NCBI GenBank assembly: GCA_030634505.1
Contig: DAOWAQ010000001.1
Location: 1-25,074 of the forward strand
DNA: 25,074 nt
Direction of reading: 5' to 3'
DNA from: Calditrichia bacterium
GTDB lineage: Bacteria; Calditrichota; Calditrichia; JAJRVZ01
The stretch's first letter is position 1; each line of letters opens with the position of its first letter. The position numbers were made by a program, and so were the translations under genes. The notes below the pieces were generated by a model. That model was not told where the DNA came from. It saw nothing but the letters and a program-made list of their open reading frames with translations, and did not search any database. Shown here piece by piece: positions 4,663-10,788 of this stretch.

Positions 4663-5271
4663 ATGGGATTAAACAAATCAAAAGGGAATTGCTGTATTTA
4701 TAGCATATATTCAAAATCAAATAAAAAGACGTATATCGGCTCAACAAATGATTATAATAAAAGAAAAAGACGCCATATATCAGATCTAAAACTAAACAGA
4801 CATCATTCAATATTACTTCAAAGACACTTTAATAAATATGGAATTGATGATATATCATTTGAATTATTAGAATATGTTAAAGAAGAAAAGGATTTAATCA
4901 CCATAGAACAAAAGTATATTGATAAGTATAATCCTTCATTTAATATCCTAACTGTAGCAGGAAGTCCCCTTGGACGAATATGCTCTGATGAAACAAAAGA
5001 AAAGCTGAGAAAAATAAATCTTGGGAAAAAATTATCAAAAGATACAAAAAGAAAAATGTCAAAAAGCAGAATGGGTAAAAAACGGAAACCATTTACAAAA
5101 GAGACATTAAAAAGAATGTCCGAAAGCAGATCAAAAAGAAAAATAATCAACACAAACACAGGTGCTATATATGAAGGATACAATAATGTTCCCATTGATA
5201 TGAAAACATCAACATTAAGGGCACAATTAATTGGTCAAAATTCAAACAAGACCATATATAAACTAGTATAA
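4663..5271 (+). CDS. GIY-YIG homing endonuclease with NUMOD3-type repeats
   Basis: CIYSIY...TYIGST...R...H, EQKYID...FN catalytic domain, then SDETKEKLR / SKDTKRKMS / TKETLKRMSES repeats. Confidence 0.92.
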   Translation: MGLNKSKGNCCIYSIYSKSNKKTYIGSTNDYNKRKRRHISDLKLNRHHSILLQRHFNKYGIDDISFELLEYVKEEKDLITIEQKYIDKYNPSFNILTVAGSPLGRICSDETKEKLRKINLGKKLSKDTKRKMSKSRMGKKRKPFTKETLKRMSESRSKRKIINTNTGAIYEGYNNVPIDMKTSTLRAQLIGQNSNKTIYKLV

Positions 5272-7149: not shown

Positions 7150-7187
7150 AAGGGTAACAATTTGTTAAAACATTGTTACCTTTTTTA
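7150..7187 (+). terminator. Rho-independent terminator after the radical SAM operon
   Basis: Stem GGTAACAAT (7153-7161) / ATTGTTACC (7172-7180) followed by a T6 run. Confidence 0.7.
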
Positions 7188-7213
7188 TTGTTTTTTACCG
7201 TAAAAATTTGTTT
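7162..7213 (+). promoter_or_regulatory. 52-bp element, copy 1 (copy 2 at 10026-10077); candidate terminator/late-promoter module
   Basis: Ungapped 44/52 identity with 10026-10077 by manual alignment; lies upstream of the fibre operon. Confidence 0.55.
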
Positions 7214-7746: not shown

Positions 7747-9726
7747 ATGGCAATACCTACCTATCTTGATGATGGTGGGATAGGAACTGGGACGGATACT
7801 TCCGTAGCTGTACCATATCCTTCAACTGTTAATGCAGATGATATTCTCATTGTTCATGTTATGGATGCAGATGATGATTCGTTCGATACACCTTCTGGCT
7901 GGGTTAAAGCCGGGGAAAATACAGATCTTCCAAATCTTTCTAATGCATGGTACTGGAAAAGGGCAGTAGGAACTGAATCTGGAACAGAAACATTTACGTC
8001 TACAAAAACAGCAGGTTCATTGGTTGCTGGTATTATGTATCGTTTTTCTGGATGTATAACTATCGGAACACCTTACGAGATAGAGCAGACAGGAGTCGTA
8101 ACACAAGCTACATTTAGAACAGTTTCGGGTAGTACTTTAACCGATGACTCCTTATTTTGTGTAATTTTTGTAATAGAAGATAATATCGCCGCAACTTTAT
8201 CAGGAACGGGATTTGTCGAAAGATCCAATAAGACAACAGCAGTAGGTTCTGATGCTGCATTCACATGTGCGAGTAAGGATATGGCCACGGCAGGAGCTAC
8301 AGGGGTAGCGCAGTACTCATGGGGGTCGAATGAGTATAATTCTGTGGTTAGATTTGCTTTGTTGCCTGTAGAGGATGGCAACATTGAAGTATTACCACAG
8401 GTAGGAGCTCTGATTATTACGGGAATAGCTCCCACAGTAATTGCAAGTGACCATAAAGAAATTACCCCAGGAGTAGGAGTTGTTAGTTTAATTGGATTTG
8501 AGCCTGTGGTTTTTGCATCAGATAATCAAAATGTAAATCCATTAACCGGAATTATCACAATCGCCGGGTTTGAACCAACTGTTGCAGTTACGGATAATAA
8601 AAATGTATTTCCCGATGTTGGTATTATTTCACTAGTCGGATTTGAACCAATAGTTACTGTTACCAATAACAAAAACATACTTCCTTCACTTGGAGAAATC
8701 ACTATAACAGGCTTCGAACCTACGGTTTTTGCGAGTGATAATATAAATATATCTGCATTCACAGGTGAAATTACAATCGCAGGTTTCGAGCCCGTAATAA
8801 CCATAAGCGATAACAAAGAGGTATTTCCAGATGTCGGTTCTGTTCTATTAACGGGTTTCGAGCCCGTAGTAATTGCAACAATTAATGTGAATGTGACACC
8901 TGATGTTGGTGTTATATCAATCGCAGGATTCGAACCTATTGTAATTGCAAGCGATCATAAGAACATAACCCCATTAACGGGTGAAATAACAATTATAGGT
9001 TATGAGCCTATTGTTTCTATAGGCGCGAACAAAGAAGTATTCCCCGATGTTGGAAGTATTTCGTTAACAGGATTTATTCCTACGGTTGTCGTAACAGACA
9101 ATAAAAATATAACTCCCGATGTTGGAGTTATTACCATAACAGGCTTCGAGCCCGTAGTTTTCGCGACAAATACAAAAGAAGTATTTCCACAACCGGGCGA
9201 TTTATCTATAGTGGGAATAGAGCCAATTGTATTTGCTTCGGACAATAAAGAAGTTCAACCAGGCATCGGAATAGTAGTAATAGAAGGTTTTGCATCAATT
9301 GTTTTTGCAAGTGATAATAAAAATATACTTGCATCCACAGGAGATATTATCATAACAGGCCTTGAACCAACCGTTAGTGTGCCGACAGGCATAGATATTA
9401 CACCATTAACGGGTGAACTAAATATCACAGGATTTGAACCCAATGTTCTCACTCCAGTAAATATTAACGCTGATGTAGGGGTAATTATCGTAACAGGCTT
9501 TGAACCAATCATCAGTATAGGTATAAATATTACACCATCGACAGGTATATTAACCACCAACGGATTAAAACCAACAGTAGCAATAGCTGGAATTCCAATA
9601 ATAGAAAGACCACCTATAAGATTAATAGATATTCCTCCGCAGACAAATAGATTGGCTAAAATAAATGATGTAGGAGGTAGATTTAAACAAATAGGGCCGA
9701 TTGAAAAAAGATTAAATAAATTATAA
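7747..9726 (+). CDS. Putative virion fibre/appendage protein with about 17 repeats of 24 aa
   Basis: N-terminal beta-rich domain (VAVPYPSTVNADDILIVHV), repeats P.vG.i.itGFEP.V.asdnk.i., basic C-terminal tail. Confidence 0.65.
   Translation: MAIPTYLDDGGIGTGTDTSVAVPYPSTVNADDILIVHVMDADDDSFDTPSGWVKAGENTDLPNLSNAWYWKRAVGTESGTETFTSTKTAGSLVAGIMYRFSGCITIGTPYEIEQTGVVTQATFRTVSGSTLTDDSLFCVIFVIEDNIAATLSGTGFVERSNKTTAVGSDAAFTCASKDMATAGATGVAQYSWGSNEYNSVVRFALLPVEDGNIEVLPQVGALIITGIAPTVIASDHKEITPGVGVVSLIGFEPVVFASDNQNVNPLTGIITIAGFEPTVAVTDNKNVFPDVGIISLVGFEPIVTVTNNKNILPSLGEITITGFEPTVFASDNINISAFTGEITIAGFEPVITISDNKEVFPDVGSVLLTGFEPVVIATINVNVTPDVGVISIAGFEPIVIASDHKNITPLTGEITIIGYEPIVSIGANKEVFPDVGSISLTGFIPTVVVTDNKNITPDVGVITITGFEPVVFATNTKEVFPQPGDLSIVGIEPIVFASDNKEVQPGIGIVVIEGFASIVFASDNKNILASTGDIIITGLEPTVSVPTGIDITPLTGELNITGFEPNVLTPVNINADVGVIIVTGFEPIISIGINITPSTGILTTNGLKPTVAIAGIPIIERPPIRLIDIPPQTNRLAKINDVGGRFKQIGPIEKRLNKL
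8395..9591 (+). repeat. About 17 diverged 72-bp coding repeats with a 3-unit higher-order period
   Basis: Counted in the translation: 14 units of 24 aa, two of 22 aa and one partial. Confidence 0.9.
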
Positions 9727-9848
9727 CGGAAATAATAAACACAGTAGCGATATGAAAAAGAAAATATATGATATAGTATTTGCAGCCCAATACGAAGGAC
9801 TTAGCACCAAAGAAGCAACCAATAAGCTATTGGGTTTATTTGGTGTTA
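9724..9848. mobile_element. attC-like imperfect palindrome (TAAC ... GTTA)
   Basis: TAAC 9724-9727 (contains the fibre-gene stop); arms AATAAACACAGTAGC 9734-9748 and GCTATTGGGTTTATT 9826-9840 (13/15 complementary plus one G.T); GTTA 9845-9848. Confidence 0.6.
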
Positions 9849-10003
9849 GCGAGCGTTATTCTAAAGATGATATACGGAAGTATGGTGATGATTGGAAGAT
9901 AACAACTTGGGATGAAGGGCAGCAGAGACGTAGGATAATGGCAGAAGGGTATAAAACAAGAGATGAAGCAGAGCACGACAGGGAGATATTTAATGCTCGC
10001 TAA
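9752..10003 (+). CDS. Hypothetical protein starting inside the attC-like hairpin and ending in a second TAAC
   Basis: 83-aa ORF; LFGVS is encoded across GTTAGC; the stop TAA 10001-10003 is part of GCTAAC. Confidence 0.65.
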   Translation: MKKKIYDIVFAAQYEGLSTKEATNKLLGLFGVSERYSKDDIRKYGDDWKITTWDEGQQRRRIMAEGYKTRDEAEHDREIFNAR

Positions 10004-10025
10004 CGGTTGGGATATAGCAATGTAA

Positions 10026-10077
10026 TTGTTAAAATATTATTGCTCTTTTTATTGTTTTTTACGCAAAAAATTTGTTT
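10026..10077 (+). promoter_or_regulatory. 52-bp element, copy 2, upstream of the terminase operon
   Basis: 44/52 identical to 7162-7213; includes the 3' arm of a hairpin (AGCAAT 10016-10021 / ATTGCT 10039-10044) followed by T runs. Confidence 0.55.
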
Positions 10078-10100
10078 TTTTATTAAAATTTATTATTGAA

Positions 10101-10286
10101 ATGATCAGAAATGAAGTAATACCGGGAAGATTTATCGAATTCAAATGCAGAAATGCAGGTATTATTATGGATGAATTTAATAGACTACTCGATCCTGATA
10201 AATGTAATTTAGGGGCTAATAAGGCCCTCATTAGGGGCTCATATTTAAATATAATATGGCTCATATTTAGACGAAGCGCAAATTAA
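10101..10286 (+). CDS. Possible 61-aa hypothetical protein upstream of terS
   Basis: ATG 10101 preferred over TTG 10026; stop lies 1 nt before the terS start; no recognisable motif. Confidence 0.35.
   Translation: MIRNEVIPGRFIEFKCRNAGIIMDEFNRLLDPDKCNLGANKALIRGSYLNIIWLIFRRSAN
10209..10269. repeat. Three GGCT[AC]ATA cores phased at 22 bp
   Basis: Cores start at 10214, 10236 and 10258; TTAGGGGCT is shared by units 1-2 and GGCTCATATTTA by units 2-3. Confidence 0.7.
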
Positions 10287-10287
10287 A

Positions 10288-10788
10288 ATGGAACAATCCG
10301 ACGAAAATAAAAGCAAAGTAGGCGCACCAGATGGAAATACCAATGCCGAGAAATGGACGTTTGAAAAATCAAAGGAACTTCTCGAAAAGGCATTAGAGCT
10401 ATCTGACCGCAAATATGCATACAAAAAAGTCGGCAAGAAAAAGATATGGGGATATGAGTTTGATTTCATTGGCGAAATAGCATGTGAATTGGGTACATAT
10501 CATCAAAACATAACCAGGCACATCCCTTCAAGACACAAAGAATTACAAGTGCTTGTTAATCAATTGATTGCAAAAATGGAACGCAATTGTTATGCAAACA
10601 CAAAAAGAGGACTGATTAAAGAAGGCACTGGTATAGTGAACCTCAAATCCAACCACCATTGGACAGACCGACACGATCACAACGTTAAATCAAGGAACTT
10701 GAATGCCGATGTACCATTAAGCCCAGAGGAGAAAAAGGAGGCATTGAAAGAAATACAAAAAGGATTAGATGAACTTAAAGACTACTGA
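10288..10788 (+). CDS. terS: Terminase small subunit
   Basis: GAPDGNTNA N-terminal motif, IVNLKSNHHWTD, and position overlapping terL. Confidence 0.8.
   Translation: MEQSDENKSKVGAPDGNTNAEKWTFEKSKELLEKALELSDRKYAYKKVGKKKIWGYEFDFIGEIACELGTYHQNITRHIPSRHKELQVLVNQLIAKMERNCYANTKRGLIKEGTGIVNLKSNHHWTDRHDHNVKSRNLNADVPLSPEEKKEALKEIQKGLDELKDY

Follow-up and report, generated by a model that had tools for sequence, protein, structure and literature searches.

A small tailed-phage gene that appears to be joined from two exchangeable DNA modules at a structured AAC/GTT site

The open reading frame (ORF) of 83 residues at positions 9752-10003 of the forward strand raises a simple question: is it a single gene, or two pieces of DNA that have been joined? 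It lies in a stretch of 25,074 nucleotides (nt), here called the window, of contig DAOWAQ010000001.1, which belongs to a 2.45-Mb assembly from a cold-seep metagenome; the window is part of a tailed-phage genome. The ORF sits between the gene for a repeat protein of 659 residues (7747-9726) and the terminase operon. An initial annotation, made from the letters alone, had seen here a hairpin like an integron attC site followed by a miniature cassette, and had proposed a cassette-shuffling system that builds chimeric proteins. Our analysis favours a structured-site system of cassette exchange, integron-like in outline, whose enzyme would be encoded outside the window, and we give this reading a probability of about one half.

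Two halves with separate relatives

The 83-residue protein has no match in Pfam, PHROGs or ESM Atlas, and no relatives in IMG/VR, the GenBank phages or the GTDB genomes; its relatives were found in metagenome protein collections only. A search of 5.8 billion proteins identified 24 of them. In 17 of the 24, residues 1-32 (MKKKIYDIVFAAQYEGL...LFGV) are about 90% identical and are followed by unrelated C-termini, which have only weak, sub-threshold matches to Pfam (zinc ribbons, DUF551). Six other relatives have residues 33-83, again about 90% identical, behind unrelated N-termini. An exhaustive HMMER search of 1.8 billion representatives once more gave N-only versus C-only matches. The counter-evidence that the initial annotation had named, homologues conserved from end to end with no break at LFGVS, was not seen.

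The same division is found in the DNA. Related metagenomic phage contigs (L003-L021) and the cultured Polaribacter phage P12002L (L022) were compared with the window and with the source assembly (G000), and an all-against-all blastn of the fetched loci showed that two module islands are the sole homology. Between contigs whose flanks are unrelated, the N-module island is up to 98.4% identical along a stretch of exactly 125 nt, from TAAC to GTT, and across the loci the N-module has unrelated sequence on both sides. The C-module islands are 160-171 nt long, with 88-90% identity in L003, L008 and L009. The ORF and the ends of the islands, in window coordinates, are as follows.

9752-10003, forward strand: putatively chimeric ORF of 83 residues; N-module, residues 1-32; C-module, residues 33-83; join at V32/S33 (LFGV/S)
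9724/9725: left end of the N-module island in L004-6, L017 and L020
9847: right end of the N-module island in L004-6, L010, L015 and L020/21; this end was seen in 5 independent contexts
9850-9852: right end of the N-module island in L016, L017, L007 and L019
9843-9845: left end of the C-module island in L009, L011 and L012
10004/10005: right end of the C-module island in L003, L008, L009 and L018, and by inspection in L011

These comparisons support the view that the two segments are separate exchangeable units, and that the ORF is a chimera joined at V32/S33, as had been proposed when its N-terminal part was assigned to the hairpin and its C-terminal part to the cassette. The suggestion that relatives would carry other inserts after GTTA is also borne out, since the N-terminal part occurs with many unrelated C-terminal parts, and the reverse. 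Position 10004 is directly followed by unrelated sequence in five contexts (the window, L003/L008, L009, L011 and L018). As the sequence past the AAC of the C-module differs from one context to the next, the mobile unit is not an ORF plus its own attC.

Single contigs could be assembly chimeras at a 125-nt repeat. The key arrangements, however, were each seen again in an independent sample (L004/L005/L006; L020/L021; the window and a Logan contig), and every contig bears its own sequence variant of the module. One further arrangement, at 2139-2160 of L017, consists of the leader module, the first 11 nt of an L016-type body (GTTAGCAATAG) and then unrelated sequence, and encodes a shortened protein of 52 residues; from its sequence it looks like a broken or deleted cassette.

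Both modules are real coding sequence under purifying selection. The ratio of nonsynonymous to synonymous substitution rates (dN/dS) is 0.18 for the N-module across 10 copies, and 0.02-0.03 for the C-module at a dS of about 0.7. In addition, the first 20 or so nt and the last 16 or so nt of the C-module are unchanged in homologues at 54% and 40% amino-acid identity (L011, L012), being identical at dS 0.7-1.6. Termini that do not change in such diverged homologues imply a constraint on the ends of the C-module at the nucleotide level.

A structured site, its bodies and their recurrence

The layout of the two modules is given below. The first (9724-9848, 125 nt from TAAC to GTTA) carries an A-rich leader, a start codon and 32 codons; the second (9845-10004) is a body with no promoter and no start codon, which terminates in TAA-C.

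9724-9727, forward strand: TAAC core (R''-like), the left edge of the 125-nt homology island
9728-9733, forward strand: unpaired 5' spacer GGAAAT of 6 nt (4 nt on the 3' side), an asymmetry common to about 15 sites
9734-9748, forward strand: 5' arm of the long-range stem, in the 5' leader at -18 to -4 relative to the ATG, beginning 8 nt past the upstream stop
9749-9825, forward strand: loop of 77 nt; contains the start codon ATG (9752) and the first 24 codons of the N-module peptide
9826-9840, forward strand: 3' arm of the stem, across codons 25-30
9845-9848: GTTA, closing the first module
9845-9858, forward strand: left terminal repeat GTTAGCGAGCGTTA, in which GTT (9845-9847) is the codon for Val32 and the breakpoint
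9991-10004, forward strand: right terminal repeat TAATGCTCGCTAAC, including the stop TAA (10001-10003)
9845-10004, forward strand: cassette body (C-module) of 160 nt, codons 32-83 plus the stop

The 125-bp imperfect palindrome with its 15-bp arms, both TAAC stops (9724-9726 for the 659-residue ORF, 10001-10003 for the 83-residue ORF) and the inverted repeat at the ends of the cassette, which is complementary at 13 of 14 positions, are all where the initial annotation had placed them. The inner arms (9734-9748 and 9826-9840) are complementary at 13 of 15 positions, with one further G.T pair. Rfam has no family matching 9500-10300, and the leader module is present as a single copy both in the window and in the source assembly.

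The case for the stem is comparative. When 10 homologous copies of the leader module, taken from independent contigs of metagenomes, are aligned, 90% of the cells in the 15-bp stem are paired. Three pairs show compensatory double changes, and at one of the three a base of the leader varies together with position 2 of a Gly/Val codon; one G.T pair is the same in all 10 copies. The covariation score was equalled in only 1 of 500 shuffles, sliding the stem partner lowers the paired cells from 89.5% to at most 55%, and RNAalifold finds the same stem unguided. On these comparative data the stem is not a chance pairing, although folding energy by itself does not support it. The source sample includes a second contig in which the same two arms (9724-9746, 9828-9850) enclose a different loop of 79 nt, implying that the arms, and not the peptide, are the conserved core of the site.

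It is worth adding that L003 (5998-6288) and L008 (171-461) carry a diverged homologue of the leader, MNKEVRNIIEATSMGKLEKKAVIKSLLDLHIV, which is of the same length, has about 35% identity, and stands before the same C-module. Its arms, ATGTAAAACTTGAAGCG and CGCTTTTGGATTTACAT, have changed jointly relative to those of the window, as judged by eye, and these joint changes would add to the covariation.

Is the locus an isolated case? Sites were sought as AAC, at most 10 nt, a stem, a loop, the second arm, at most 8 nt, and GTT. The related loci contain 17 such sites where about 3 are expected, and the rate for AAC...GTT is 5.3 per 1000 candidate pairs against 0.98 for all 64 triplet pairs, a 5-fold enrichment. 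The spacers are mostly 112-120 nt despite the sequences being unrelated. The AAC and GTT triplets stand at both ends of the site in the window (9725-9727, 9845-9847), in about 15 sites of the related loci and in P12002L. Other such hairpins in related phages had been anticipated, and they include tandem arrays, in which sites alternate with bodies of the form GTT...AAC.

L019: 3 sites, 3 bodies
L020: 3 sites, 3 bodies
L011: 2 sites, 3 bodies
L014: 2 sites, 2 bodies

Two or more sites close together, taken as a cluster, are thus found in L011, L014, L019 and L020, and also in P12002L. Bacteroides phage UZM3, which is among the nearest isolates by terminase (about 45% identity), has no such sites, implying that the system is not universal among Bacteroidota phages.

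Some bodies enclose a complete small ORF, preceded by a short leader. In others, as in the window, there is no start codon, and reading begins at an ATG in the loop of the site before the body (twice in L020, once in L011, and in all the N-module loci). The AAC provides an in-frame stop for part of the bodies; L016 reads through it, in L010, L015 and L020 it lies past the stop, and the sites occur in different reading frames and outside ORFs. Because the AAC is variably a stop, read through or beyond the stop, the repeats are not a by-product of coding.

The pairing of each body's two ends follows a rule. When the first 14 nt of a body were compared with the last 14 nt of its own or of other bodies, own ends were complementary at 9.8 of 11 positions and non-own ends at 5.8 of 11 (14 bodies; permutation p <= 5e-5), in agreement with the earlier claim that the start of a cassette complements its own end. 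The end motifs are GTT-N7-GTT on the left and AAT-N7-AAC on the right; at position 11 of the terminal repeat the left end has G in 10 of 14 bodies and its right-end counterpart is A in 14 of 14. The count of GTTAGCG in the window (two) is not significant by itself. Mimicry of Xer/dif sites was considered: some ends (GCATAAC/GTTATGC) resemble dif arms; those of the GTTAGCG type do not. As a separate observation, GTAG recurs in 5' arms and left terminal repeats of the window, L003, L007, L010, L011, L014, L019 and L022, at least 10 times in about 420 nt against roughly 1-2 expected, an apparent excess.

The imperfections in the pairing are also highly patterned, as the following counts show.

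16 hairpin stems: Watson-Crick 214; G (5' arm).T (3' arm) 26; T.G 2; A.C type 0; other 5
12 terminal repeats: Watson-Crick 150; G (5' arm).T (3' arm) 10; T.G 2; A.C type 2; other 8

Of 57 mismatches in total, 40 are wobbles, and 36 of these 40 have G on the 5' arm and T on the 3' arm of the sense strand. In the hairpin stems these account for 26 of 33 mismatches, and the A.C type, which is the wobble of the opposite strand, is absent. Sense-strand G.T pairs with hardly any A.C imply that the structure is selected on the sense strand, as mRNA or as sense-strand DNA. The G is on the 5' arm by 26 to 2, whereas arm composition (46 G-C and 27 C-G pairs) predicts about 63:37, and many of the stems have two G.T pairs 5 bp apart. 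This pattern suggests that the G.T pairs belong at particular positions and are not just permitted there. The stems are ungapped, and the extrahelical bases that an attC site should have, and that the initial annotation proposed to look for, are nearly absent: the sole example is a 1-nt bulge at 766-890 of L020.

In the cultured Polaribacter phage P12002L the whole design is repeated at 32693-32924 on the minus strand. It starts with AAC, a 6-nt spacer, an 18-bp arm with two G.T pairs and an A-rich leader, and continues with an ATG and 19 codons, the second arm, GTT and the body GTTAGG...CGCTAAC, followed by GG. Scanning the genome revealed further long-class sites on the gene-sense strand, with an enrichment of about 3-fold. 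The GenBank start of gp42 is a TTG at 32917, within the hairpin spacer; the ATG at 32877, after the A-rich leader in the hairpin loop, opens an ORF of 62 residues ending CGC-TAA-C and, on this layout, looks like the real start of gp42.

Clusters of attC sites without an integrase were reported in 17 phages including the virulent P12002L (Qi et al. 2023, PMC9892861). Of the six sites tested there, P12002L_attC1 was the sole one with no junction recombined by IntI1, and P12002L_attC2 did recombine with IntI1 (PMC9892861). P12002L_attC1 (TGCTAAC-GGCTAC-stem...stem-ATT-GTTAGGC) is, of the published phage sites, the one nearest in layout, which is the same as that of the sites found here. The gene gp54, for a DNA methyltransferase (38036-38935, minus strand), forms a complete cassette between two short hairpin sites (38036-38089 and 38880-38935), with a perfect own-end match of 7/7 (GTTACCT...AGGTAAC). 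These two sites are additional to the two P12002L attC sites in the main text of PMC9892861.

A proposed exchange system weighed against other explanations

How might such a gene arise? In the favoured reading, the 83-residue gene would have been assembled from two DNA modules that are exchanged among Bacteroidota phages at AAC and GTT cores, which would lie at the base of folded structures. The site would double as a module for translation start and leader peptide, and since it has that role, swapping bodies would swap C-terminal domains. The substrate of the exchange may be the sense strand, folded as single-stranded DNA (for example on the lagging-strand template), with the conserved G.T mismatches possibly acting as marks for recognition or strand choice. 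The candidate enzymes are an integron-type or Xer-type tyrosine recombinase of the host, or a structure-specific nuclease together with microhomology joining. The outcome would be a combinatorial set of small phage proteins having a common N-terminal leader and differing C-terminal domains.

Several results weigh against this reading. Minimum free energy structures of 9724-9848 (on either strand) and of 9700-10070 lack the long-range stem, and the folding z-scores are weak (-1.8 for the top strand, -1.0 for the bottom). Single-sequence folding was discarded as a test of the stem, and we do not count it as evidence against the stem itself; the comparative data (islands, covariation and own-end rule) support the observation better than folding energy does. 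The sense-strand G.T mismatches suit an RNA structure at least equally well, and mark the strand opposite to that used by a canonical attC. A scan of the window gave one site and one body, with no cluster or enrichment. No match to PF00589 or TIGR02249, and hence no IntI or other tyrosine recombinase, was found on the window contig, as the initial annotation had said of the window, and none was found in P12002L. Assembled Logan contigs of three cold-seep runs contained no joint indicating excision, inversion or an empty site, the loop-replacement variant aside. Finally, the single crossover of a canonical integron, between the G and the TT of the core, leaves the sharp breakpoint after AAC unexplained. 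Of the shuffling system that was first proposed, the exchangeable modules are retained; membership of the integron family is not established, given the lack of IntI, the scarcity of extrahelical bases, the G.T wobbles, the unrelated sequence past the C-module, the single site in the window and the absence of an IntI1-recombined junction for P12002L_attC1.

The source assembly does have two Xer-like genes, on other contigs. It also has at least seven (7-9) genes for diverged Y1 transposases of the IS200/RAYT type, on contigs C70, C314, C262, C193, C391, C131 and C277, flanked by GC-rich, REP-like hairpins such as CCCAGCCGTTTACGGCTGGG. The Y1 transposases were considered as the enzyme and dropped, the flanking hairpins being unrelated in sequence to the phage sites.

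The alternative that survives best, which we regard as rather unlikely, is that the stems are mRNA structures. The stem could mask the initiation region and be opened by ribosomes that finish at the upstream TAA(C), a form of translational coupling, or could serve in processing or stability, and the structured junctions would merely be the places at which illegitimate or short-homology recombination yields viable in-frame hybrids. This would account for the fact that nearly all the mismatches are sense-strand wobbles, the A.C type being absent from the hairpin stems, and for the placing of the 5' arm, which spans -18 to -4 relative to the ATG and starts 8 nt beyond the upstream stop. It also agrees with the favoured strand in P12002L, which tracks gene orientation, and with the recovery of the stem by RNAalifold. 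However, it leaves unexplained the invariant AAC and GTT triplets, the pairing of bodies with their own ends, the bias of G to the 5' arm (26 to 2), and islands of 125 and 160 nt that are sharp to the nucleotide and reach 98% identity in unrelated genomes; and there are several loci whose AAC does not serve as the stop of an upstream ORF.

We consider it improbable that the segment of 160 nt represents either a miniature inverted-repeat element or a piece of DNA invertible within the gene, with 14-bp terminal inverted repeats that serve a transposase or invertase. The terminal inverted repeats with their conserved end motifs, and the discreteness of the homology islands, would be natural on this account, and reading the sequence with the cassette flipped gives GTT AGC GAG CAT TAA, which cuts the protein to the N-module plus VSEH. 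Set against this, the segment occurs once per genome, and the 2.45-Mb assembly shows no multi-copy family. There is no consistent target-site duplication; no invertase or transposase near the cassette in the window; and, in the assembled contigs available, no joint with a change of strand. Moreover, strong purifying selection acts on the body, which encodes a protein domain, and the hairpin spacers are unaccounted for.

Ordinary domain shuffling, with the repeats as chance or coding by-products and the sharp edges as gene or domain boundaries, fits a right edge at a stop codon, a left edge at a domain boundary and the weak folding z-scores, but is very improbable in view of the covariation of a non-coding base with a codon position, the own-end rule (p <= 5e-5), sites in different frames and outside ORFs, the 5-fold enrichment of AAC...GTT hairpins, and termini that are identical where synonymous sites are saturated. 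A different idea, ribosome hopping between the GGT codons flanking the cassette, was rejected because it fits only 3 of 8 loci.

If exchange at structured sites is the better reading, is the system a form of integron? The likeness to attC sites is considerable: AAC...GTT ends; an imperfect palindrome with an unpaired spacer, an inner stem and a variable loop; and a length of 125 nt for the window site, inside the range of 57-141 nt. Integrons and clusters of attC sites lacking an integrase (CALIN) likewise have, between their sites, ORFs that are start-less or have a short leader and whose stop codon falls within or close to the AAC core; the start of an integron cassette complements its own end; and phage CALIN elements, too, have no integrase in the phage. 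In contrast, attC uses extrahelical bases of the bottom strand for strand choice, and the sites here have sense-strand G.T wobbles. Outer pairing extends over 11-18 bp instead of 7; the loop contributes a start codon and codes for a conserved N-terminal peptide that runs on into the next cassette; and the bodies are only 125-306 nt. Unlike in integrons, both AAC and GTT are breakpoints, and the bodies travel without a downstream site. There is a substantial chance that this is a separate system rather than an integron variant. A fuller version of that proposal, which we hold as a tentative possibility, is a system distinct from integrons in having hairpin chains on the sense strand, AAC/GTT bases, a code of spaced G.T pairs, exchange of both site and body, and a host or phage enzyme that would build chimeric libraries during lytic infection.

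Other known systems show partial likenesses. The VCR of the chromosomal super-integrons of Vibrio cholerae is a conserved attC type of about 120-125 nt with many unrelated cassettes, and so resembles the present case in having one site type of that size with many unrelated partners; however, VCRs are present in many copies in one array beside intI, and here there is one peptide-coding site per phage genome, in many genomes. Shufflons and the invertible segments of phage tail fibres (Rci; Gin/Cin) join a constant N-terminal part to alternative C-terminal segments by recombination at short repeats, as appears to happen here, but they hold their alternatives in one genome, where an adjacent recombinase flips them, whereas here the alternatives are spread over different genomes with no recombinase alongside. 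Elements of the REPIN/RAYT and IS200/IS605 types are hairpin units of roughly 110 nt that are acted on as single-stranded DNA of one strand; the size is similar, and the GTAG in the 5' arms recalls the conserved GTAG of REP elements, but those elements are multi-copy and intergenic in one bacterial genome.

In T4-type phages, structured intergenic motifs flank the small variable ORFs of PeSL cassettes and are thought to mediate modular shuffling (PMC2839356, PMC4122927). These too are conserved structured motifs at small variable ORFs in plastic regions of phages, but PeSLs are repeated within one genome and are intergenic promoter-terminator units for homologous recombination (PMC2839356, PMC4122927); they are not inside ORFs, make no protein chimeras, and have neither AAC/GTT cores nor an own-end rule. 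Phage-borne attC clusters are already known. What is not in PMC9892861 is the class of sites of about 125 nt with a coding loop (spacer 112-120 nt), the sub-gene micro-cassettes that give chimeric proteins, the independent assortment at both junctions, and the sense-strand G.T code.

Genomic setting and significance

The other genes of the window include a DnaB-like helicase fragment, radical-SAM enzymes, the 659-residue repeat protein, the large terminase subunit and the portal protein. The terminase is nearest to those of Bacteroides fragilis siphophages (44-46% identity). A GIY-YIG homing endonuclease is encoded at 4663-5271 (PHROG 314, E 1e-25), between a region of small genes and the radical-SAM genes.

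Downstream of the cassette the feature is as follows.

10005-10077, forward strand: region without a second hairpin site, comprising a short terminator-like stem AGCAAT...ATTGCT, a T-run and a copy of a 52-bp module

The initial annotation had described a second site here, truncated by the 52-bp module; an inverted-repeat search found no partner arm for 10005-10025, and this part of the description is not confirmed. The module itself, of about 52 bp and resembling a terminator or promoter, is duplicated in the window (7150-7213, with the copy at 7162-7213, and 10015-10077), and the copies bracket a fibre-like module of 2.9 kb together with the 83-residue gene. The upstream copy is preceded by a 9-bp hairpin, GGTAACAAT...ATTGTTACC, whose ends GGTAAC/GTTACC are the motif of the short sites flanking gp54 in P12002L.

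If the structures are true recombination sites, lytic phages of a major bacterial phylum would have a dedicated means of recombining small accessory proteins at the sub-gene level, with one N-terminal leader joined to many C-terminal domains, and the chimeric proteins are likely to be factors for host takeover or counter-defence. Integron-like logic would then be extended from promoterless genes to domains and from bacteria to virulent phages, possibly with a different enzyme and a different DNA strand from those of integrons, and P12002L is available as a cultured model. If the stems are instead mRNA structures, they would be a new conserved motif of translational control in the Bacteroidota, in which initiation signals are poorly understood. 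True recombination sites would also give a sequence-defined explanation for some of the sharp mosaic boundaries in phage genomes.

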